Positions 7,909 through 46,567 of a DNA stretch of 64,000 nucleotides are shown one piece after another. A program made the position numbers and the translations under genes. Numbering within the stretch: position 1 is the first letter of the stretch; every line of letters starts with the position of its first letter. The notes below the pieces were generated by a model. The model saw only the letters and a program-made list of their open reading frames with translations. It ran no database searches and had not been told where the DNA came from. Source of the stretch: Escherichia coli (GTDB taxonomy: Bacteria > Pseudomonadota > Gammaproteobacteria > Enterobacterales > Enterobacteriaceae); assembly GCF_003019035.1 (NCBI RefSeq), contig NZ_CP027447.1; one strand, written 5' to 3'.

Positions 7909-9648
7909 TTATAAATCGAGAATTTCTTCAAATTCTGTGACTTTATTAATGTCAGGTCCCATAGCGATATTAGTCACGCGTTCAGTAATAATTTCCACAA
8001 CAACAGGTACGTGAAATTCGTCACGCAAACGCTGGGCTTCTTGCAGTGCAGGCGCAATATCCTGTGATGCGAATACGCGAATCGCTTTACATCCTAATCC
8101 TTCAACCACAGCTTTATGATCAACGCCATAACCATTAATTTCTGGAGCATTAATATTTTCAAATGACAGTTGAACGCAATAATCAATATCAAATGCACGT
8201 TGTGATTGACGAATCAAACCAAGATAAGCGTTGTTAAGTAAAATATGGATATACGGAAGATTAAATTGTGCGCCGACGGCTAATTCTTCAATCAAGAATT
8301 GAAAATCGTAATCACCGGATATTGCCACAACGGGAACAGATGGATCAGCTTTTACCGCGCCCAGTGCTGCGGGCATTGTCCAGCCTAGCGGCCCAGCCTG
8401 ACAGGCATTAATCCAGTGGCGTGGGCGGTAAACATGTAAAAATTGGTTTGCGGCGATTTGCGCCAGACCAATTGTCGAAATATAGCGTGTCTCCGGTCCG
8501 AAAACCTTATTCATTTCGTGATACACGCGCTGCGGTTTAATTGGATTGCAGTCAAAGTCTGAACGACGAAGCATTGTGCGTTTACGCTCGGCACATTCGG
8601 CAATCCAGCGACTGCGGTCTTTCAGTTCTCCACGTGACTTCATATCACGGGCGACCTGAATAAATAGCGTTAAGGCGCTTTCAGCATCAGAAACAATGCC
8701 CAGATCCGGCGCAAATATCCGGCCAATTTGTGCAGGTTCGATATCAACATGAATGAATTTGCGGCCTTCGGTGTAGGTCTCAATGGCTCCGGTATGACGG
8801 TTTGCCCAACGGTTACCGATACCAAAAACAAAATCGGAGGCCAGATAACTGGCGTTACCATAGCGATGACCCGCCTGACATCCCATGCGACCAATCATTA
8901 GGGGATGATCATCTGATAATGCGCCCCAACCGCGTAAGGTTTGAATGACGGGAACGCCAGTTAACTCGACAAACTCACGCAACAATTCACTCGCTTCGGC
9001 GTTAATAATGCCACCGCCAGCGATGATGACGGGCTTTTCGGCGCCATTTAGCATTTCTAATGCGCGTACGGCCTGGGCCCGTGTTGCCTGAGGTTGCCAG
9101 GGGGTTAGTGGCTGATAGAGATCGATATCAAACTCAATTTCGGTCATCTGAACATCAAAAGGGAGATCTAAAAGAACCGGGCCAGGGCGGCCTGAACGCA
9201 TTTCCCAGAAGGCTTTCTGGAATATCCCCGGCAACTGACCCGCTTCGAGAATTGTGCGAGCCATTTTGGTTACTGGCGTGGCGATAGCCTCAATATCGAC
9301 GGCCTGGAAATCTTCTTTATGAAGTTTTCCTACGGGAGCTTGACCAGTAATGCAGAGAATAGGAATGGAATCCGCGGAGGCGGAATAAAGCCCCGTAATC
9401 ATATCAGTGCCCGCAGGGCCTGATGTGCCAATACACACGCCAATATTGCCATTCTGACTGCGGGTGTAACCTTCAGCCATATGCGAGGCGCCCTCAACAT
9501 GACGGGCCAGAATATGATCAATACCGCCTGATTTTTTCATCGCGGCATAGAGTGGGTTGATTGCTGCGCCGGGTACACCAAAAGCAACGCTAATGCCTTC
9601 TTTTTTCAGTATTTCTACTGCAGCTTCGATTGCACGCATCCTCGCCAT
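7909..9648 (-). CDS. Glyoxylate carboligase (tartronate-semialdehyde synthase), ThDP-dependent
   Basis: 579 aa; colinear with K-12 Gcl ([20 protein letters not shown]..., [43 protein letters not shown]) but clearly diverged, so a second gcl-type gene rather than the canonical locus. Confidence 0.88.
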
Positions 9649-10026: not shown

Positions 10027-11976
10027 ATGGATATTATTATAATGAATAAAGAGTCGTATCATAATGATCTAAAAAATAAATGGAAAATGTTTGTTAAGCA
10101 TGGTTGGGTCGCGACAAATTCGACTAATCATGTGATGCTGAGGTCATGGCAAAAATGTCTCAAGCATTGTGACCCTCGCCACTGGAACACGCCTGTCAAA
10201 GCTTCCGGGCAAACATTGCAGACGATTTTTTCTCGTAACGAAGAGTTTATTAGAATTTCACAAAGAGTTGTTGAAGACCATTTCACTCTGGCTGGTGACG
10301 ACCGGTTGGCATTTTTGATCATTGACCCACACGGCTGGGTTCTATCGTTGAATGCAGCAGGCGATTATTCCAGTCAATTGCGAGAGTTAGGAATTGAATC
10401 TGGTATGTCATGGGCCGAAGATGGCATTGGAACCAATGTATATAGTCTTTGTCGGGAAACAAATTTATATACACAACTGGAAGGAGCAGAACATTTTAGT
10501 GAACAGCTACATTGTTATGCGATGAGCGCTGCTCCGGTCATTGATTATTATGGTAATATCCATGGATACATTGTATGTATAATTGAAACTACCGCCGAGC
10601 TTGTTAAATTAAAAACATCATATTCATGTGCAACAGAAATCGCTAATTATATCTATATTGAGAATGAACAAAAGTTAATAAACAAAGTACTTTGCCAGCA
10701 TAATGCTGTGATTGAATGCATGGATGACGGTTTTATTTGTTGGAATAGTCATTCTTTAATTACGATGGTTAATTCTCAAGCACAAACACTACTGAATATT
10801 GATAAAGAAAGTTTAATTGGTCAGAACATCCGAAAAGGATTCGTATTTCCGCCGATTTTGAATGAGGCAATTACACAACGGAACAAACTATCGCAAAAGC
10901 AAATTGTCCTCGAATGCCGTGGCGAATTTATTGAACTTATGGTTACCCTTCGCCCGTTAAGCGATGGTTCGTTTTTACTTTTTCTTCATCCATTAGACAA
11001 AATCAGGAAAATAGCCCAACAGCAAATAAGCACTAATGCAAATTTTACCTTTGACAGTTTACATGCGGCTTCAGGTGGTATGAAGCAGGTATTACTTATC
11101 GCTCGCCGGGCAATTAAATCCATCTCTCCGATTTTGATCAATGGCGAAGAAGGTGTGGGAAAATTGAGTTTGGCGATGGCAATACATAATGAGAGCGAGC
11201 AACGTGATGGGCCATTTATTTCTGTAGATTGTCAGATGCTATCACCAGAAAATATCTTACACGAACTTCTTGGCTCTGATGTTGGCCCTTCGCCATCGAA
11301 ATTTGAACTGGCTCATAATGGCACCTTATATCTGGATAAAGTCGAATATCTATCAGGGGAAGTTCAGAGTGTTTTATTGAAAGTATTGAAAACGGGGCTT
11401 GTTACTCGCTCAGACAGCCATCGTTTGATCCCCGTACGCTTTCGCCTGATTACATGTACCAGTAGTTCGTTACGTGAGTACGTGCAACAAGGGGCTTTTA
11501 GCCGACAGCTATATTATGAGATCTCCATGAATGAAATTGAAATTCCGCCATTGCGCAAACGTCGTGAAGATCTCAAGCAAATGATTGACGATATTATTGA
11601 TAAGTATCAGGAGCGCACTCGAAAAAAAATGACAATCACGCCTGACGCAAATTCAGTTCTGCTTGAGTACCGTTGGCCTGGAAACATCTCCGAGTTCAAA
11701 AATCGAATGGAGAAGGTATTTATTAACTGCAATCGGCTTGTCCTCGGATTAGAGAATATTCCTCTGGATATCCGACAAAATAACAGTAGTGGCGACGATG
11801 ATATCCCTCATCTTACTTCACTGGCAGAATTGGAGATGCAAGCTATTGAGCATACATGTCGTGTCTGCGAATGGAATCTAACTAAAGCAGCTGAAGTATT
11901 AAAAATTGGTCGTACAACATTATGGCGCAAGCTTAAAATCTATAATCTCTATCCAAATGTTGAGCATGCAGATTGA
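10027..11976 (+). CDS. DhaR-like transcriptional regulator (sensor domains + degenerate AAA+ sigma54-interaction domain + Fis-type HTH)
   Basis: 649 aa; central block INGEEGVGKLSLAMAIHNESEQRDGPFISVDC ... FSRQLYYE and C-terminal IGRTTLWRKLK closely parallel E. coli DhaR (CGEEGVGKALLSQAIHNESE ... IGRTTLWRKMKQ), with no GAFTGA motif. Divergent from the gcl-type operon. Confidence 0.75.
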   Translation: MDIIIMNKESYHNDLKNKWKMFVKHGWVATNSTNHVMLRSWQKCLKHCDPRHWNTPVKASGQTLQTIFSRNEEFIRISQRVVEDHFTLAGDDRLAFLIIDPHGWVLSLNAAGDYSSQLRELGIESGMSWAEDGIGTNVYSLCRETNLYTQLEGAEHFSEQLHCYAMSAAPVIDYYGNIHGYIVCIIETTAELVKLKTSYSCATEIANYIYIENEQKLINKVLCQHNAVIECMDDGFICWNSHSLITMVNSQAQTLLNIDKESLIGQNIRKGFVFPPILNEAITQRNKLSQKQIVLECRGEFIELMVTLRPLSDGSFLLFLHPLDKIRKIAQQQISTNANFTFDSLHAASGGMKQVLLIARRAIKSISPILINGEEGVGKLSLAMAIHNESEQRDGPFISVDCQMLSPENILHELLGSDVGPSPSKFELAHNGTLYLDKVEYLSGEVQSVLLKVLKTGLVTRSDSHRLIPVRFRLITCTSSSLREYVQQGAFSRQLYYEISMNEIEIPPLRKRREDLKQMIDDIIDKYQERTRKKMTITPDANSVLLEYRWPGNISEFKNRMEKVFINCNRLVLGLENIPLDIRQNNSSGDDDIPHLTSLAELEMQAIEHTCRVCEWNLTKAAEVLKIGRTTLWRKLKIYNLYPNVEHAD

Positions 11977-34813: not shown

Positions 34814-35770
34814 ATGACAAACTTCACGACCAGTACGCCGCATGACGCATTATTTAAATCCTTTCTCACGCACCCTGACACCGCGCGGGATTTTATGGAG
34901 ATCCACTTACCCAAAGATTTACGTGAACTGTGCGATCTCGACAGCTTAAAACTGGAATACGCCAGCTTTGTCGATGAAAAATTGCGGGCGCTACATTCCG
35001 ATATTCTGTGGTCGGTAAAGACCCGCGAAGGAGATGGCTATATTTATGTGGTGATTGAACATCAGAGCCGCGAGGATATCCATATGGCCTTTCGCCTGAT
35101 GCGATATTCCATGGCGGTGATGCAGCGCCATATCGAGCGTGATAAACGCCGGCCGCTACCGCTGGTCATCCCGATGCTGTTTTATCACGGTAGCCGTAGT
35201 CCTTACCCCTGGTCTTTGTGCTGGCTGGATGAATTTGCCGACCCGGCTACCGCACGGAAGCTTTATACCGCAGCGTTCCCGCTGGTGGATGTCACTGTCG
35301 TGCCAGACGACGAGATTGTGCAGCATCGCAGAGTCGCCCTGCTGGAGTTGATCCAAAAGCATATTCGCCAGCGCGATCTAATGGGGCTTATTGATCAACT
35401 GGCAGTATTACTGGTTACAGGGTGCGCTAATGACAGCCAGATAACCGCGCTGTTAAATTACATTTTACTGACTGGCGATGAAGCGCGTTTTAATGAGTTT
35501 ATCAGCGAACTTATCCGTCGAATGCCACAACACAGGGAGCGAATAATGACGATTGCAGAGCGAATTCATAATGATGGATGGCTGTTGGGAAGGGAGAGGG
35601 GGAGGAAAGAAGGGAAAGAAGAAGGGGAAAAGAGCCTCCTCCGATTGTTGTTGCAGAATGGGGCGGATCCTGAATGGATACAACGATATACCGGACTTTC
35701 GGCAGAGCAAATGCAGGCATTAGATCAGCCCTTGCCTGAAAGCAAGCGCGATCCATGGATCGAGTACTAA
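34814..35770 (+). CDS. rpnD: Rpn-family recombination-promoting nuclease (YhgA-like, PD-(D/E)xK), RpnD/YjiP-YjiQ equivalent, apparently intact
   Basis: 318 aa; N-terminal [24 protein letters not shown] and [11 protein letters not shown] motifs typical of YhgA-like transposase_31 proteins; Gly/Glu/Lys-rich stretch ([16 protein letters not shown]) near the C-terminus. Position corresponds to K-12 yjiP/yjiQ. Confidence 0.75.
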
Positions 35771-35797: not shown

Positions 35798-35826
35798 GCC
35801 TGATGCGCTACGCTTATCAGGTCTAC
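35798..35826 (+). repeat. REP element
   Basis: GCCTGATGCGCTACGCTTATCAGGTCTAC is a close match to the E. coli REP consensus, lying in the rpnD-yjiR convergent gap. Confidence 0.7.
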
Positions 35827-35861
35827 ATAACCCATTAAATATATTGAATTTTAAAGATTTT

Positions 35862-36012: not shown

Positions 36013-37425
36013 TCATTCCATTGCCCGATACACGGCTTCGCCAATTTGCTTCAGTGCTTCGCGATAGGTTTCGCTGAGCGGCAAAGCGCAGTTGATGCGC
36101 AGACAATTACGGTATTTGCCGGAAGCTGAGAAAATCGAGCCTGCCGCCACCTGGATTTTCATGCGGTATAGCTGCCGCGCAACGCAAACCATATCGACCT
36201 GTTCAGGCAATTCGATCCACAGTAAAAATCCGCCTTTCGGGCGCGTAATACAGATTTCGCAGGGAAAATATTCCCGTATCCAGCAGGTATAAAGCGCCAA
36301 ATTGCGCTGATAGATCTGCCGCATCCGCCGGATATGGCGATGATAGTGACCTTCCAGCACAAACGTTGCCGCCGCCATTTGCGTGGACGGCACATTAAAG
36401 CTGCTGATGGCATATTTCATATGCAGCAGTTTATCGTGATAGCGCCCCGGTGCGACCCAACCCACGCGCAGGCCTGGAGCAATACTTTTACTGAACGAGC
36501 TGCACAACAGCACTCGCCCGTCGATATCCCAGGAATGAATGGTCCGCGGGCGCGGATACTCCGTCGCCAGTTCGCCGTAGACATCATCTTCAAAAATCAC
36601 AATATCATGACGCTGAGCGAGAGAGAGAACGGCCCGTTTGCGCGCGTCCGGCATAATAAATCCCAGCGGATTATTACAGTTTGGCACCAGAATGATGCCT
36701 TTAATCGGCCACTGCTCCAGCGCCAGTTCCAGCGCTTCAACGCTGATGCCTGTTTCTGGATCGGTGGGGATTTCAATCACTTTCACGCCCATGCCGCGCA
36801 GCATCTGCATCGAACCGTAATAACAGGGGGATTCGACCGCGACAATATCGCCCGGTTTACACACTGCCATCAACGCCAGCGACATCGAGTTATGGCAGCC
36901 GCTGGTGATGATGATGTCATCGGCGGTGACCACCGAGCCGCTGTCGAGCATCAGGCGGGCAATCTGCTCGCGCAATACCCGCTGGCCGGCTAACAAGTCA
37001 TAACCGAGAACGGTTTGCAGATTATGCTGCACCACCCGGCTTAGCTCCCGCCACAGCGGTTTCAGGCTGGGCGTTTCGACATCCGGCGTGCTTTTACTTA
37101 ACGGAACAATGGAACTGTCGCTATGCGCCTCCAGCATATCCAGCACCTGATCCCACTGGGTAATTTCCACCGGGCGCTGCACCGGACGCGTCATCGGCGG
37201 TACTGGCGGCTGGGCTTTACGTTGTGCGACAAAATAACCCGAACGCGGCTGCGGAGTGATGAGCTTCATCGTCTCCAGCGTCTGGTACGCCTGCTGCACG
37301 GTGCTAATACTGACGCCGTGCTCCTGACTCAAGCTGCGCACCGACGGCAATTTCTCCCCGTGACGATACAGCCCTTGCTCAATCCGCTCTGCAAGCAGAG
37401 TCGCCAGATGTTGATAACGCGTCAT
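36013..37425 (-). CDS. yjiR: MocR-type transcriptional regulator (GntR HTH fused to PLP aminotransferase-like domain) YjiR
   Basis: 470 aa; N-terminal GntR HTH (LPSVRSLSQEHGVSISTVQQAY) followed by a fold-type I aminotransferase-like domain; same length and position as K-12 yjiR. Confidence 0.85.
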   Translation of the reverse strand: MTRYQHLATLLAERIEQGLYRHGEKLPSVRSLSQEHGVSISTVQQAYQTLETMKLITPQPRSGYFVAQRKAQPPVPPMTRPVQRPVEITQWDQVLDMLEAHSDSSIVPLSKSTPDVETPSLKPLWRELSRVVQHNLQTVLGYDLLAGQRVLREQIARLMLDSGSVVTADDIIITSGCHNSMSLALMAVCKPGDIVAVESPCYYGSMQMLRGMGVKVIEIPTDPETGISVEALELALEQWPIKGIILVPNCNNPLGFIMPDARKRAVLSLAQRHDIVIFEDDVYGELATEYPRPRTIHSWDIDGRVLLCSSFSKSIAPGLRVGWVAPGRYHDKLLHMKYAISSFNVPSTQMAAATFVLEGHYHRHIRRMRQIYQRNLALYTCWIREYFPCEICITRPKGGFLLWIELPEQVDMVCVARQLYRMKIQVAAGSIFSASGKYRNCLRINCALPLSETYREALKQIGEAVYRAME

Positions 37426-37601
37426 GCTGTATTCCTTATTTGGACCATACAGAGGGAAAAACCGGTACAGATGAGGCTAAAAAACCGGATGCAGATGCTG
37501 TTTTAACCTGTCTGTATGTTAAATAAAAGTAATGTTTGAATCTGTATTGTGAACTGCCAAAAGGCGGATGATGAAGCCTCTGAAAGATGAGGAGGCAGCA
37601 G

Positions 37602-37766
37602 ATGGAATTTCACGAAAACAAAGCTAAAGCACCGTTTATTGGACTTGTGCAACTCTGGCAGGCAGTGAGGACCTGGTGGCTGAAAAAGCAGACCCGGCGC
37701 GTGTTACAGCAGATGAGTGATGAGCGGTTGAGGGATATTGGGTTACGCAGGGAGGATGTGGAGTGA
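37602..37766 (+). CDS. yjiS: DUF1127 small protein YjiS
   Basis: 54-codon ORF below the track's size cutoff (MEFHENKAKAPFIGLVQLWQAVRTWWLKKQTRRVLQQMSDERLRDIGLRREDVE); ATG at 37602, TGA at 37764-37766; divergent from yjiR. Confidence 0.7.
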   Translation: MEFHENKAKAPFIGLVQLWQAVRTWWLKKQTRRVLQQMSDERLRDIGLRREDVE

Positions 37767-37807
37767 TGGGGCAATTTCCCTTCCCGTATGGGGAAGGGGA
37801 GAGAAAC

Positions 37808-38146
37808 TTAGCGTGGCGTTTTGCTACTAATCACCCCAATAAAATCCTGCACCTGCTTTTGTTTACGCGCCGACAGCTTGCACACCTGGCGCAGCGACAG
37901 CATCAGTTCGCTCTCTTCGGCGGCGGGTGGTTGGGCGGTGAGGACAATACAGCCTTCCATCACTTTGACATCTACCGCCGTGCCGGTGGCAAAACCGGCG
38001 GTTTCCAGCCACTGACCTTTCAGGGTGATGGCGGGAATACGGCTGTAATCCGGGTAGCGACTCGCATAACTCACGGTTAATTGACGGTTATTTGCCGGGG
38101 AGACTTCTGCTTCGAACGGTTGTGCAATAGAATGCGTGTCAGTCAT
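37808..38146 (-). CDS. symE: SOS-induced toxin SymE (type I toxin-antitoxin toxin, AbrB-fold)
   Basis: 112 aa, [52 protein letters not shown]... matches E. coli SymE; lies at the distal end of the hsd cluster as in K-12. Confidence 0.85.
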
Positions 38147-38216
38147 GATTACTATTCCTTAGAAATAGGGATTGTGATTAGCGGTGCGGGTGTGTTGGCG
38201 CACATCCGCACCGCGC
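38140..38216 (+). ncRNA. symR: Putative SymR antisense sRNA (antitoxin RNA for symE)
   Basis: Assigned by position only: in K-12 SymR is transcribed antisense across the symE start and 5' UTR. A TAGAAT -10-like hexamer lies just upstream inside symE on the + strand, and a 9-bp-stem hairpin (GCGGTGCGG ... CCGCACCGC) occupies the predicted 3' part. Ends are approximate. Confidence 0.4.
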
Positions 38217-38223
38217 TAAATAC

Positions 38224-38239
38224 CTGGATATATCATCAG
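38224..38239. promoter_or_regulatory. Candidate LexA box (SOS box) in the symE promoter region
   Basis: CTGGATATATCATCAG fits CTG-N10-CAG with an A/T-rich spacer, about 80 nt upstream of the symE start; consistent with the known SOS control of symE. Confidence 0.5.
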
Positions 38240-38360
38240 TAAATATGGGGAAAGTCCAGCTAAAAATAGAAAATAATAAAAGCGTTACTGGAAAGATCTG
38301 GAAGAGAAATTAACGTTAATTCAGAATGGCCGGATAACAAAGTGTATCCGGCCTTCATAA

Positions 38361-41300
38361 TTAGTTTAAAACACTCATATGATGTTCTTTAAAATTCTCT
38401 GCCTGTGCCAGCACTCCCATATAAACATCATCATTCGCTACTGGCGGGAACTTATGCTTGTGTAGAAGAAGAATAAGTTCAACTTTTAGTTTCGCTTTAA
38501 TATCATCGCGCTTACTCCAGTCAGGATATTTCGATGTGTTGTCAACCACGCTTTTCATCTCTTTTGCCAGTGACAGCATTTTTTCATCGTCATAGGTGAA
38601 CTGATATTTATCGCGCATATGAGCAAGAATGTCGAAAAACGCTTTTTCTTCAATATCAATACCTAAATCGGCCCATGTGCCCATTTCGGTTTTAATATCA
38701 TAGATAATATCGGTCATTTCCTGACTGAATGTATCGAATTCTTCACCGTTGAGTACATCATCTTCTCGCCGCTCATTATAACGATCTATAATCGCCTGGA
38801 AGCGGCGGGTGAAGTTAATCCCTTGCAACTGGTTCACTTTCTTGAAGTCGCTGATCGCTTTTTCCAGTAATTTTTGTAATAACTGGATCTTTGTTGCCGG
38901 AAGTTTGATCTTGTTAATTCGCGCCAGATAATCTTCGTCAAAAATATCGATGGATTCCGCTTTTTTATCGCCAAGAAAATAAATTTCTTCTACGCCATCA
39001 GCTTTTAGCGCTTCTGCAATCATTTCACGAACGCGTGCATTCATCTGGGTGACATCCGGTGCGTCACCTTTCGTCAGTTTGAAAACAATTGAACGAACAG
39101 CAAGATAATAGTGAATATGATCACGTTCTGTCTGTGATAGTGCTTCACTGCCGCAGCAGACGTCGTAGGCGGCTTTCATGCGTTTAACCAGTCCCATAAA
39201 ACGACGTTCAACTTTCTGGGTACGCAGAACAAATTCCGCCGCGCGGTTGAGGCAGGATAATTGCGCTTGTGGCTCACCACTAAAATAATCCCGACTGTCA
39301 AATTCGTAAAAGACTTGCCCCAACAAATCGAGATGGTTTTTAACTTCTATTACCGATTGCTGAATATCTTCAAAGTTGGTGGCATCAATGCGGGAATACA
39401 TTGCCAGTGCCTGGTTCATCTGACTTTTAATGCCGATGTAGTCCACCACTAACCCTTTACTTTTGCCTTCCAGTTTACGGTTAACGCGAGAAATGGTCTG
39501 GATAAGATTATGTTTTTGTAAGGGTTTATCAATATAGATGGTATCCAGTTCCGGGACGTCGAAACCAGTCAGCCACATATCAACAACAATGGCAATTTTG
39601 AAATTCGATTTAGCGTTTTTGAACTGCTTATCCAGCTCTTTACGATATTCTTTTGTGCCCAGTAAATCATAAAGCGCCTCGTCGTCATCTTTACCGCGCG
39701 TCATGACCATCTTCACCATTTCTGAAGGCGGTAACTCTTTCTGCTCCTGTTCCGTCAGGACGACGCCATCGGGGGCTTGCTTCACTTCAAACCAGGTAGG
39801 GCGAATAGCTTTAAGCTGGCGGTAGAAATCCCAGGCAATTTCACGGCTGGCACAAACAAACATGGCTTTGCCTTTTACGGTGGAACCTTCGGCTACGCGT
39901 TTTTCATAATGTTTAGCAAAATCTTCCGCGAGGGCTTTTAACCGATCTTCATCACCCAGTACCGCATTCATGGTTGCGGTGGCTTTTTTGCTTTCGTCGA
40001 TTTGCCACTCATTGGTGCCTGCGTTTGCGCACTCTTCGTAATACTTTTCGACTTCTTCCAGTTTGCTGGAGTCCAGGATCACTTTAGCCGCACGGCCTTC
40101 GTACACGATGCGTACAGTGATTTCATCCTGAACGGATTCGGTCATGGTGTAACTGTCGATCACCTCACCGAAGACATCGAGCGTCGCGTCAATCGGTGTG
40201 CCGGTAAAGCCAACATAGGTGGCGTTTGGCAGTGAATCGTGCAGGTATTTCGCAAAGCCATAAGTTTTGCGCACTTTTCCGCTTTCTTTATCGACGATGA
40301 CTTTCTGGTCGAGGTTAACCTGGCTGCGATGTGCTTCGTCTGAGATGCAAATGATATTGCTGCGTTCAGAAAGGAGTTCGGTGTCTTCGGTGAATTTATG
40401 GATCGTTGTCAGGAATACACCGCCACTATTGCGTCCCGCCAGTTGATTACGCAAATCTTCACGGCTGATAACAGGAACGATGGTGTCGTCGCCAATGTAA
40501 TTTTTGGCGTTGCACATTTGCGCAGAAAGCTGATCGTCCAGATCGGTGCGGTCGGTGATCAAAACAATGGTCGGGCTGGCAAACTCCACGCTCTTCATCA
40601 AAAGACGCGTTAAAAATTGCATGGTGTAACTTTTGCCACAGCCCGTTGCGCCAAAGTAGGTGCCGCCTTTACCGTTACCGAAAGGTTTACGCGCTTGCTT
40701 GATGCTGTAATAGAGTTTGCGGGCGGCATAGTACTGCGGATATCGGCAGCAAATTTTTACTTCGTGCTTAGCTTTATCCGGGAAGCAGATAAAGTTTTTA
40801 ATCACATCCAGCAGACGTACCGGATGAAACAGCCCCTGAATCATTGAGTGCAATGACGGAATTCCGTCCTGTTCACGGTTTTCATTACCGGTGACTTTGC
40901 GCCATGAGTAAAAATATTCATAGGGCGCAAACAGGTTGCCCATCCGGTTATTAACGCCATCGCTAATAATGCAGAGCGCGTTGTAGATAAACAGTTGCGG
41001 AATATCCCGGCGGTAGCGTTTACAGAGCTGCTTCCAGGCATCACCTATACTGGCTTCCTGCTCGCGCACCGCGCTTTTAAATTCAAAGACGACCAATGGC
41101 AGACCATTGATATAGAGAATGCCGTCAGGAATACGAGTCTGATTATCTTTGCCGGAGATTTTAAGCTGGTTAACAATCTTAATCCGGTTAAGCGGCGGAT
41201 TAATATAGGAGGGCGGGAGTTCTGCCGCCTGTTGCAACGGGACATCTTCGGCGTCAAATATCTGGCGCAGTGCGGCAGGTAGATGCCGGGTGTCGAGCAA

Positions 41301-41624
41301 TTCAATATAGAGATCTTTTTGTTGCCGATCGTCGCGTTTGAACAGAAAACCATTTGCCAGCCAGCGACAAAATGTTTTGTTGCTTTCATAAAGATCGGAG
41401 GCCGGAAGCGTGGTGAACTGTTTGATCAGTCGCTGAATCTCTTCTTCAGTAATGCCATCAGGCTGGTAGCGTGCCGCTAAATAATGACGGAGATCGTCTT
41501 CGATAATGACCTGATCGAGACTTGAACGAGGGACATTATCGCCGATCAGGTGTTGATATCCCTGATCCTGTAATAGTTCAATGATCGCTTGTTCTAATTT
41601 TGCTTCACTGAAAGAGAGACTCAT
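38361..41624 (-). CDS. hsdR: Type I restriction enzyme R subunit (HsdR), not EcoKI-type
   Basis: About 1087 aa; conserved nuclease motif (VVFEFKS), DEAD/DEAH helicase Walker A (GATGCGKSYTM) and helicase motifs. Start set at the ATG (MSLSFSEAK...) preceded by GGAG; the track ORF begins at an upstream TTG. The sequence and length differ from K-12 EcoKI HsdR. Confidence 0.88.
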   Translation of the reverse strand: MSLSFSEAKLEQAIIELLQDQGYQHLIGDNVPRSSLDQVIIEDDLRHYLAARYQPDGITEEEIQRLIKQFTTLPASDLYESNKTFCRWLANGFLFKRDDRQQKDLYIELLDTRHLPAALRQIFDAEDVPLQQAAELPPSYINPPLNRIKIVNQLKISGKDNQTRIPDGILYINGLPLVVFEFKSAVREQEASIGDAWKQLCKRYRRDIPQLFIYNALCIISDGVNNRMGNLFAPYEYFYSWRKVTGNENREQDGIPSLHSMIQGLFHPVRLLDVIKNFICFPDKAKHEVKICCRYPQYYAARKLYYSIKQARKPFGNGKGGTYFGATGCGKSYTMQFLTRLLMKSVEFASPTIVLITDRTDLDDQLSAQMCNAKNYIGDDTIVPVISREDLRNQLAGRNSGGVFLTTIHKFTEDTELLSERSNIICISDEAHRSQVNLDQKVIVDKESGKVRKTYGFAKYLHDSLPNATYVGFTGTPIDATLDVFGEVIDSYTMTESVQDEITVRIVYEGRAAKVILDSSKLEEVEKYYEECANAGTNEWQIDESKKATATMNAVLGDEDRLKALAEDFAKHYEKRVAEGSTVKGKAMFVCASREIAWDFYRQLKAIRPTWFEVKQAPDGVVLTEQEQKELPPSEMVKMVMTRGKDDDEALYDLLGTKEYRKELDKQFKNAKSNFKIAIVVDMWLTGFDVPELDTIYIDKPLQKHNLIQTISRVNRKLEGKSKGLVVDYIGIKSQMNQALAMYSRIDATNFEDIQQSVIEVKNHLDLLGQVFYEFDSRDYFSGEPQAQLSCLNRAAEFVLRTQKVERRFMGLVKRMKAAYDVCCGSEALSQTERDHIHYYLAVRSIVFKLTKGDAPDVTQMNARVREMIAEALKADGVEEIYFLGDKKAESIDIFDEDYLARINKIKLPATKIQLLQKLLEKAISDFKKVNQLQGINFTRRFQAIIDRYNERREDDVLNGEEFDTFSQEMTDIIYDIKTEMGTWADLGIDIEEKAFFDILAHMRDKYQFTYDDEKMLSLAKEMKSVVDNTSKYPDWSKRDDIKAKLKVELILLLHKHKFPPVANDDVYMGVLAQAENFKEHHMSVLN

Positions 41625-41690
41625 ATCGCGCTCCAACCCTGGCTAATTTCTGGTAAGCATTCCCGTATCAGTAGAAAACCTTACCAGAAA

Positions 41691-44785: not shown

Positions 44786-45952
44786 TTAATCCATCTCCAG
44801 CTCATCAAACAACTGCAAATCTACATCCAGCAATTCCACTGCATTGCTGCGGCGAATGCCGACGTTATTTTCGATTAACAGTTCCAGTAAGCGATCGCCG
44901 TCGATAAGCGTAATGGGCGCGGCCCCCGGAAAGAGCGCCGCTTCTGCACATTTCGCTGCAAATTTCCCGGTGGTGATGAGCGTACCGCGAATGGCCTTGT
45001 GGTAAGGCAACGCTCCGCGCAACTGGTCGATATACGGTCGAGTGATGGTGTTCTGCATTCTTTTGACCTGCACCACTTCGGTAATAGTGGTGATGCCGAC
45101 CTGCACCTGACCAATCACGTCCACACCTTTATCGCCTGAGGCTTTGGTCACTTCGACCTGCTCGTAGCCCATTGCTTCCAGTAATTGACCGACCAGTTGT
45201 TCAAATTTGTACGGGTTCATCGTGCTGATTTGTTCGCGCAGCAGCTCTTTTTGCTGTTCGTTATAGCGTTTTACCGCTTCCAACAGCTCTTTACGCGGAT
45301 CGCTTTTTCGTGCAGGCAACGCTTTTCCAAGCCAGGCGCGCCCGGTATCGGTGATGCGATAGCTCATGCCTTCACGGTTAACCATGTCACGGTCGATAAG
45401 GTTATAGAGACGGGAGTAGAGCGTGCTTTTCACTGAACTTGCTGACGCGAATTTCGAATGCTGATGCAAAAAGGCCTGCCATTCCGGCAATAAATCGGCG
45501 CGGCGCGACATTTCCCGGCCAGCCAGCAGCTCAAGCAGTTGCAGAATGCCTTCCTGGTCGTCCAGTGAACGCAGCGTTTTTTCGTCATCTTGCAGGAATT
45601 TTTGCCCGCGCGAGGTGGGCTGCCAGGTATCGTCTGGCGTGCTTTCCATCAGCTCAAACTGGGGATAGTTGAGGAATAAGTAGCAGCCGTAGCTGTGGCG
45701 CGGGTTCAATATGTGATTATCGGTATCCCAAATACGACGGGCGATGTCGGCATCTTCACCCGTTAAGCGTTCGCTGATCCACAGGTCAGGTTCCGACCAG
45801 TCAACGGGTTTTTGCGGCGTTCCGGTTTGCTCGTGAATGGCAGTAATCATATTGCGCACCGCTTTCAGGGAATAGCCTGAGACGGCTTTCATCATAGCCT
45901 TAACTTGCGCATAGGTAGGAAAAAGCGGGGTAATGACTTTGTAGTTTTTCAC
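44786..45952 (-). CDS. Mrr-like restriction endonuclease family protein (extended N-terminal region + Mrr-type PD-(D/E)xK catalytic domain)
   Basis: 388 aa; C-terminal third carries Mrr-catalytic-like blocks (GDKGVDVIG ... VQVKR ... GTLITTGKF ... LIDGD); N-terminal ~240 aa have no K-12 Mrr counterpart. GTG start preceded by AGGGA; 63 bp upstream of hsdM on the same strand. Confidence 0.65.
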   Translation of the reverse strand: MKNYKVITPLFPTYAQVKAMMKAVSGYSLKAVRNMITAIHEQTGTPQKPVDWSEPDLWISERLTGEDADIARRIWDTDNHILNPRHSYGCYLFLNYPQFELMESTPDDTWQPTSRGQKFLQDDEKTLRSLDDQEGILQLLELLAGREMSRRADLLPEWQAFLHQHSKFASASSVKSTLYSRLYNLIDRDMVNREGMSYRITDTGRAWLGKALPARKSDPRKELLEAVKRYNEQQKELLREQISTMNPYKFEQLVGQLLEAMGYEQVEVTKASGDKGVDVIGQVQVGITTITEVVQVKRMQNTITRPYIDQLRGALPYHKAIRGTLITTGKFAAKCAEAALFPGAAPITLIDGDRLLELLIENNVGIRRSNAVELLDVDLQLFDELEMD

Positions 45953-46105
45953 GGTAATCCCTTAACGACAGCGAGGTGTTTAGTGTGCCATGTCAGGCGA
46001 GAAATTCTATTGGATGAATCAAGTCCAACTCACACATTGTCAATTTCATGGTTGATTATTCGAAACGTGATGCTATTTCCAACATCAACGCTATAATTGC
46101 AGAAT

Positions 46106-46135
46106 AATTGTACATACATTTTTGTATATACAATT
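46106..46135. promoter_or_regulatory. Near-perfect 13-bp-arm palindrome (candidate operator / -10 region) upstream of the brnT remnant
   Basis: AATTGTACATACA-TTTT-TGTATATACAATT, with one mismatch between arms and an internal perfect palindrome TTGTATATACAA, ending about 14 nt before the brnT ATG; typical of an autoregulated TA promoter. Confidence 0.45.
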
Positions 46136-46148
46136 AGGGATGGCAACT

Positions 46149-46277
46149 ATGCCAATGGAGTTTGAATGGGATGCAAATAAGGCCAAAGGTAATCGGGTGA
46201 AACATGGCATCCGCTTTGAAGATGCGGTGTTAGTGTTTGATGATCCACAACGAACGGAATCGCTATGAGCATGGTTA
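46149..46277 (+). pseudogene. Truncated BrnT-like (DUF497) ribonuclease toxin remnant
   Basis: Translation MPMEFEWDANKAKGNRVKHGIRFEDAVLVFDDPQRTECYEHG* has the conserved DUF497 N-terminus (FEWD..K...N..KHG..FE.A..VF.DP) but stops after 42 codons, against about 90 aa for intact BrnT toxins. Confidence 0.5.
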
Positions 46278-46567
46278 AACATAAACGAGGGACCTCCTCT
46301 ACACTCGATGTGCAGCATGAGGCCGAACTGAAGGCGCTGGCGAATAAATCCGACGAAGATATTGATTACAGTGATATCCCACCTTCCAGCGATGAGCAAT
46401 GGTCTAACGCAGAACGCGGTAAGTTTTATCGGCCATTGAAAACTCAGGCCTCGGTGCGTATTGATTCTGATGTGATGGAATGGTTGAAGCGACCAGGTAA
46501 AGGCTATCAAACTCGCCTGAACGCAATTTTACGTGAAGCGATGCTGCGCGATCAGAACAAAAAATAA
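46265..46567 (+). CDS. BrnA-like antitoxin (CopG/RHH-related, COG3514-type), apparently intact
   Basis: 100 aa; C-terminal GKFYRPLKTQASVRIDSDVMEWLKRPGKGYQTRLNAILREAMLRDQ matches the conserved BrnA antitoxin signature (GYQTRINAILR); overlaps the 3' end of the toxin remnant. Confidence 0.6.
   Translation: MSMVKHKRGTSSTLDVQHEAELKALANKSDEDIDYSDIPPSSDEQWSNAERGKFYRPLKTQASVRIDSDVMEWLKRPGKGYQTRLNAILREAMLRDQNKK

Follow-up and report, generated by a model that had tools for sequence, protein, structure and literature searches.

The symE/symR locus of an Escherichia coli restriction island corresponds to that of K-12, including its LexA operator

Introduction

The closest described system is the symE-symR type I toxin-antitoxin pair of E. 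coli K-12 (yjiW-ryjC) with its LexA operator, described by Kawano, Aravind & Storz 2007 and reportedly by Fernandez de Henestrosa et al. 2000. In K-12, the SymE protein is controlled by LexA, by the antisense RNA SymR and by Lon, and SymR is a stable RNA that stands in roughly 10-fold excess over the symE mRNA (PMC1891008). The box ahead of K-12 yjiW/symE has been reported as a LexA site (PMC1891008). Its published heterology index (HI) is 7.9, and symE expression depends on LexA, yet AZT did not induce the gene significantly (PMC11228462). The biochemical activity of SymE is disputed, with an RNase and a DNA-binding nucleoid protein as the two proposals. Growth inhibition, and either DNA binding with nucleoid condensation or RNA cleavage, are known from K-12 experiments alone (PMC1891008, PMC11894785), and later work, as summarised in PMC11894785, describes a protein without RNase activity that binds DNA non-specifically and condenses the nucleoid.

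Three further type I pairs under SOS control in E. coli, tisB/istR-1, dinQ/agrB and hokE/sokE, are built like symE/SymR: LexA has its operator at the promoter of the toxin gene, and a small antisense RNA, made constitutively, keeps the toxin mRNA from being translated. Their toxins are small membrane peptides, whereas SymE is a soluble protein of 112-113 aa with an AbrB/MazE fold, and their RNAs are divergently encoded or trans-like, whereas SymR is a true cis-antisense RNA lying over the 5' end of its target.

The surroundings of symE have a literature of their own. The immigration-control region (ICR), a cassette that lies between yjiS and yjiA, has long been described as replaceable, and its variation in E. 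coli and relatives was reportedly treated by Sibley & Raleigh 2004. Type I restriction systems of families IA, IB and ID, three Type IV families, brnAT, symE/symR and rpn pairs make up the content of this site according to a 2025 EcoSal Plus review (PMC12707154). Kawano et al. 2007 aligned symER loci from K-12, O157:H7, CFT073, UTI89, Shigella and Salmonella and found SymE genes associated with restriction-modification operons and other mobile elements (PMC1891008).

Here we analyse a locus of this kind in a stretch of 64,000 nt from E. coli (contig NZ_CP027447.1), hereafter the window, in whose coordinates all positions are given (Table 1). An earlier note, made from the letters of the window, had drawn attention to symE, a candidate LexA box and the region antisense to the symE 5' end. 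Our analysis leads us to the view that these genes are the chromosomal symE/symR pair of an E. coli-like genome and that the pair would work as described for K-12, through layered repression of a growth-inhibiting protein, a reading to which we assign a probability of about 0.93. Like the ICR as described, the window has a variable block between yjiS/yjiR and yjiA that carries a Type I system, an Mrr-type nuclease, brnAT and symE/symR, and there is no difference in kind between the two. Since the window does not depart from the published picture, both the symE/SymR/operator locus and the layout of the island are already known. The locus is a textbook case of multilayered repression of a harmful protein in its documented place in a restriction island, and matters little beyond correct annotation.

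Table 1. Positions of the symE/symR locus and its neighbours in the window
Feature	Position	Strand	Basis and remarks
yjiR	36013..37425	-	ORF
yjiS (DUF1127)	37587..37766	+	ORF and domain; convergent with symE
Segment joining yjiS to the shared symE module	37767..37828	.	Locus comparison
symE CDS	37808..38146	-	Intact ORF, 112 codons and stop; 112-aa product
Inferred SymR promoter, inside symE codons 5-14	38105..38133	+	K-12 alignment; TAGAAT at 38128..38133, weak -35
SymR antisense RNA, 77 nt	38141..38217	+	Rfam RF01809, fold, K-12 identity
LexA operator TACTGATGATATATCCAGGT	38222..38241	-	K-12 alignment, matrix score, cross-species retention
Upstream part of shared module TTTTTAGCTGGACTTTCCCCATATT	38242..38277	-	Locus comparison
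Hairpin GGCCGGATA-N8-TATCCGGCC	38319..38345	-	-21.3 kcal/mol in 81-nt context, z = -4.5
hsdR, 1091 aa, last gene of the hsdM-hsdS-hsdR Type I operon	38361..41636	-	ORF and domains; co-directional with symE
hsdS		-	Type I operon
hsdM		-	Type I operon
Mrr_cat (Mrr-type) nuclease	44786..45952	-	ORF and domain
brnA	46265..46567	+	Intact; brnT apparently disrupted
yjiA, yjiX, btsT			Beyond brnA

symE and its antisense RNA

The symE gene is intact, as the earlier note had held. Its product scores 218.2 bits against the NCBIfam equivalog NF010128 ('endoribonuclease SymE'; cut-off 132), over 1-110 of 113 profile positions, and 75 bits against Pfam PF08845 (SymE_toxin; gathering score 29), and it is 93% identical to K-12 SymE. 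The start codon lies at 38144..38146 on the minus strand. The same note had called the protein a toxin; the family assignment behind that label stands, and the label itself is dated, given the later work that presents SymE as a DNA-binding, nucleoid-condensing protein with no RNase activity. The K-12 RefSeq record now names it 'nucleoid-associated protein SymE'. Codons 1-106 belong to a module held in common with K-12 and the last six are specific to loci in which symE abuts yjiS, so that the 112-aa window protein ends in SSKTPR and the 113-aa K-12 protein in AGKQKVA.

On the opposite strand, SymR is recovered at full length by the Rfam RF01809 covariance model (93.1 bits against a gathering score of 61, E = 2.2e-17, model positions 1-77 of 77). 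The RNA is predicted to fold at -41.4 kcal/mol (z = -7.2 against shuffled sequences), with one hairpin at its 5' end and a long G+C-rich one at its 3' end, the latter being the terminal hairpin that had been noticed earlier in the antisense region. Alignment to the K-12 element had been named beforehand as a way to refute the assignment, and the two RNAs do align, with 68 of 77 positions identical. Eight of the nine changes fall in the 5' hairpin and its loop and the ninth strengthens the 3' stem. The 5' end of SymR is placed 3 nt inside symE, beyond the ATG, and from there the RNA spans the start codon, the Shine-Dalgarno sequence and the 5' leader. This geometry matches the K-12 annotation, in which symE ends at locus position 11841 and symR occupies 11836..11912. 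The differences in the 5' hairpin also alter the Shine-Dalgarno context of symE, which is AAGGAA in the window and GGAGAA in K-12.

The putative SymR promoter has its TAGAAT element 7 nt before the 5' end of the RNA, and the whole promoter stretch is base-for-base the same as in K-12, where mutations in the -10 element abolished SymR (PMC1891008). A scan with a sigma-70 consensus called neither the symE nor the symR promoter, a result of a simple scan that we regard as uninformative rather than negative.

Comparison of nine E. coli loci showed that the most variable stretch of the whole shared unit is the loop of the SymR 5' hairpin, which is also the symE Shine-Dalgarno region (38157-38166 in the window). 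It occurs in five versions, and the symE ribosome-binding site changes along with it (AAGGAA, GGAGAA, AGGGAA, ACGAGAA). These versions do not track the adjacent hsd family, the one in the window being common to one IB and one IA locus. Two further variants deserve mention. In E. coli ST131 strain 4433 (locus L006), the 6-nt loop of the SymR 3' hairpin, at the equivalent of about 38193-38198, is exactly reverse-complemented while the stem is kept (CGCCAA to TTGGCG on the symE strand), which looks like a small hairpin-loop inversion. In E. coli LST200A (locus L008; NZ_CP110858.1, about 8985-9165), all of symE beyond about its first 11 codons has been lost to an IS1A insertion; the LexA box and a complete symR are left next to hsdS, the latter an orphan antisense RNA gene without its target.

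The LexA operator

The earlier note had also pointed to a CTG-N10-CAG element resembling a LexA box about 80 nt upstream of symE. Such an element is present, its 16-mer core CTGGATATATCATCAG lying at 38224..38239, 78-93 nt upstream of the ATG. The operator lies 4 nt beyond the 3' end of SymR and would therefore lie over the core promoter and start region of symE. Two tests that could have gone against it had been named in advance, alignment with the K-12 element and a weight-matrix threshold. In the alignment the box falls in the same columns as the yjiW/symE box of K-12, from which it is one base apart, an A to C substitution before CAG (window TACTGATGATATATCCAGGT, K-12 TACTGATGATATATACAGGT). 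For the second we took 20 E. coli boxes from the literature (PMC3009722, Tables 4 and 7), none of them the symE box, and derived a symmetric matrix. The window site scores 14.1 bits, inside the 11.5-25.8 bits spanned by the 20 genuine boxes in leave-one-out scoring, and would by this measure be a weak-to-moderate operator. The K-12 symE box scores 15.4 bits and the next best site in the window 12.5. Values that we call 'HI-like', 8.9 for K-12 and 9.8 for the window, come from our own matrix and are not the published heterology index. The literature searched, including the review PMC6590174, which gives no sequences, yielded the HI value alone for the K-12 box and not its exact string.

Could the element have arisen by chance, leaving symE of the window strain outside LexA control? 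We think this extremely unlikely. The bare CTG-N10-CAG pattern is common enough to raise the question, with 26 occurrences in the window where about 15 are expected, so that by itself it carries no significance, and the matrix score is a low one: simulated 64-kb sequences hold 0.18 sites at or above 14.1 bits on average, and 16% of them have one somewhere. Because the score lies at the weak end and is reached in that share of random sequences, what carries the case for the operator is its position and homology rather than the score by itself. The same simulations put the chance of such a site in a given 100 nt at about 3 in 10,000, the symE box is the top-scoring site of the window, and it is the sole one of the 26 copies with an A/T-rich spacer (8 of 10 positions). 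It aligns exactly with a K-12 site reported to be LexA-bound, and it keeps its place across species. A scan with one genome per species gave 45 symE-like loci with enough upstream sequence, and 40 of them retain CTG-N10-CAG at a fixed offset of 56-62 nt. These 40 operators comprise 29 different 20-mers in which nine of the ten spacer positions vary, so that across species the site behaves like the footprint of a binding protein. A chance origin is thus rejected on position and conservation and not on the count of the pattern, and the reading that we prefer, a genuine LexA operator, is retained.

The single difference from K-12 might be taken for a mutation of decay. We reject this since C is the majority allele in E. 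coli and is frequent at that position in genuine boxes: an allele-specific megablast of complete E. coli genomes found C in 2226 and the K-12 A in 440, and C precedes CAG in eight of the nine aligned E. coli loci and in 8 of the 20 training boxes. Many of the 440 genomes with the K-12 allele are laboratory K-12 derivatives. The operator that has been studied in K-12 is the minority allele, and the version in the window is the common one.

Among the 51 cross-species pattern matches, five failed the symE filter and were set aside (from Rhizobiaceae, Saprospiraceae, Alphaproteobacteria, Calothrix and one Bacillota MAG). Two MAGs labelled Bacillota, L051 (JAEYGZ010000044.1) and L040 (JAEWTL010000091.1), carry the E. 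coli symE operator and hsd genes of Escherichia type (97-100% protein identity). L051, which combines an E. coli-type box with hsd genes of family IA, resembles an Escherichia contig; both contigs are likely mis-binned or contaminant.

What is observed in the window is the identity and intactness of symE, SymR and the operator, their correspondence to K-12 and the retention of the operator across species. The regulatory sequence that we envision is modelled on K-12. LexA bound to TACTGATGATATATCCAGGT over the symE promoter would block transcription until DNA damage triggers LexA self-cleavage. SymR, a 77-nt RNA that would be stable as in K-12 and is presumably made from the promoter inside the first symE codons, is perfectly complementary to the leader, the Shine-Dalgarno sequence and the start codon, and would block symE translation and lower the level of the mRNA. 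Any SymE protein that was made would be removed by Lon, as in K-12. For the strain from which the window comes, we infer repression, SOS induction and control by SymR and Lon from the K-12 experiments.

Flanks of symE

The note that preceded this work placed symE directly downstream of the Type I restriction-modification genes, as in K-12, and against yjiS. Both statements agree with the annotation. On the upstream side, hsdR ends 214 nt before the symE ATG on the same strand. One candidate interpretation, in which symE and hsdS were convergent in K-12 and the window represented an inversion, was rejected: the K-12 annotation shows symE co-directional with hsdS, and the comparison with K-12 therefore stands. 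On the downstream side, yjiS ends 41 nt from the stop codon of symE, with no yjiT, yjiV or mcrBC between the two genes. The K-12 order, by annotation, is yjiS, yjiT, yjiV, mcrC, mcrB, symE/symR, hsdS, hsdM, hsdR, mrr, yjiA. Both loci are thus downstream of and co-directional with Type I hsd genes, with the antisense RNA at the same offset and the operator at the same position, and they differ in the neighbours themselves, which are hsdR of an M-S-R operon upstream and yjiS downstream in the window, and hsdS of EcoKI and mcrB in K-12.

The segment between yjiS and the shared module consists of about 10 nt common to other yjiS loci followed by about 52 nt that occur only in the yjiS-symE-hsdR arrangement, and holds the CCCTTCCC/GGGAAGGG hairpin and the last symE codons. 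At the other end, homology to the K-12 (IA) and IB loci stops at about 38267-38277, and the symE -35 region presumably falls within TTTTTAGCTGGACTTTCCCCATATT, where the shared module extends upstream of the operator. Between this point and the hsdR stop codon stands a hairpin (Table 1) that is specific to this cassette type and has no U tract. A terminator scan gave no match at this hairpin, which may be a terminator or an insulator. As the sole structure between hsdR and the symE promoter is this U-tract-free hairpin, transcription may read through from hsdR into symE; in CFT073, deletion of hsd reportedly had a polar effect on yjiW.

A shared module between exchangeable neighbours

Beyond annotation, the earlier note proposed that symE/SymR is a conserved anchor of the island while the neighbouring defence cargo is swapped. 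We compared nine E. coli loci, a small sample. They share a unit of about 440 bp, corresponding to window positions from about 37829 to 38267-38277, which comprises the operator with about 30 nt ahead of it, SymR and symE codons 1-106. Between the window and K-12 the module is 94.5% identical over 439 bp. The unit follows the last gene of three kinds of Type I system, the EcoKI-type IA (R, M, S), the EcoAI-type IB (R, M, S) and the M, S, R type of the window, and it has at least four downstream neighbours: mcrBC, a GmrSD gene, a DUF1998 fragment and, directly, yjiS. The swapping of cargo around a single module of about 440 bp, after three unrelated Type I families, is borne out. The anchor fares less well. 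The unit is carried by 2859 of 5426 complete E. coli genomes (53%), and is therefore variable content, unlike framework genes such as yjiA or yjiN; in many species it stands apart from any hsd genes; and one breakpoint lies within symE itself. SymE ends in (A/T)GKQKVA where the Type IV slot is filled and in SSKTPR where yjiS abuts, the window included. Since the last 6-7 codons vary with the downstream neighbour, the downstream boundary of the swapped DNA lies inside symE. That the versions of the SymR 5' hairpin do not track the hsd family points further to crossovers within the unit.

These observations raise the question of whether the unit is a retained hinge of the restriction island, either coupled to restriction or permitting independent swaps of the Type I and Type IV slots. 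We consider this unlikely, and each of its two forms can be weighed separately. One form would make the symE/SymR/LexA-box module a functional partner of Type I restriction, with its position after the hsd operon selected rather than that of an independent selfish pair. The arrangement has features that such a partnership would explain. In E. coli the module stands co-directional with, and 214-290 nt past, whichever gene comes last in three Type I families that are unrelated to one another; in other species, 14 of 34 assessable loci have a co-directional hsd gene that ends 218-289 nt upstream of symE; on the upstream side the module breaks off sharply some 30 nt ahead of the operator; deletion of hsd is reported to act polarly on yjiW; and SymE is a non-specific DNA-binding protein under SOS control (PMC1891008, PMC11894785). 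The remaining 20 of the 34 assessable loci have no Type I gene nearby, and Kawano et al. attributed the association to mobile or selfish elements being located together (PMC1891008). The literature consulted gives no phenotype that ties SymE to restriction, and deletion of hsdSMR had no measurable effect beyond restriction itself. On balance, we find the partnership distinctly improbable; an example of it would be an SOS-induced DNA-binding protein that limits self-restriction or serves as a back-up when restriction damages the chromosome.

The other form holds that the module is mainly a patch of shared homology, a recombination joint for the independent exchange of Type I and Type IV slots, and matters little as a regulated gene. 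Such a joint would account for the 92-98% identity over about 440 bp between otherwise unrelated flanks, for SymR 5' hairpin versions unlinked to the hsd family and for C-terminal codons that follow the downstream neighbour and not the hsd family upstream. Against it, the reading frame, the SymR structure and the operator have all stayed intact, and the operator keeps its triplets from species to species although its spacer varies, which points to selection on function and not just on homology. The sample behind this comparison is nine E. coli loci, and the two roles are not mutually exclusive. We judge a role mainly as a joint to be improbable, and favor the reading given at the outset, a regulated symE/symR locus of the K-12 kind. 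Were the hinge reading true, an SOS-triggered, DNA-coating protein could, for example, temper self-restriction. As it stands, the observations could guide a small study of cassette recombination in defence islands and leave current understanding unchanged.

Neighbourhood of the locus

The island of the window has one of the standard alternative arrangements of the ICR, with the M-S-R Type I system, an Mrr-type nuclease and brnTA in place of EcoKI, mrr and mcrBC. The Type I system differs in gene order and HsdR length from the IA (EcoKI) and IB (EcoAI) loci, and by exclusion it is probably family ID, the other Type I family known from the ICR site (PMC12707154). The arrangement is a common one: a 901-bp stretch covering yjiS, symE and hsdR is matched whole in 917 of the 5426 complete E. 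coli genomes, and the three loci whose annotation was inspected (L002, L003 and L006) have the identical layout. Over 25 kb (30000-54999) the window is about 97.7% identical to the nearest complete E. coli genome (about 2.3% diverged), so that its lineage has no close representative among the 5426.

Three minor observations concern other genes. Ahead of the intact brnA, at about 45975-46270 on the plus strand, there is no brnT reading frame of normal length, and the closest relative, L003, annotates brnT as truncated; given the disruption in the window and the truncation in L003, the antitoxin gene may have lost its toxin. Between an Rpn-family gene and yjiR, at 35819-35861 on the minus strand, the Rfam family ES036/CssrF, an sRNA, gives a match of 35.2 bits, against a gathering score of 37.6. 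Finally, an intact ORF of 318 aa occupies 34814-35770 on the plus strand, where close relatives annotate an Rpn-family recombination-promoting nuclease; its K-12 counterpart, rpnD, is a pseudogene.
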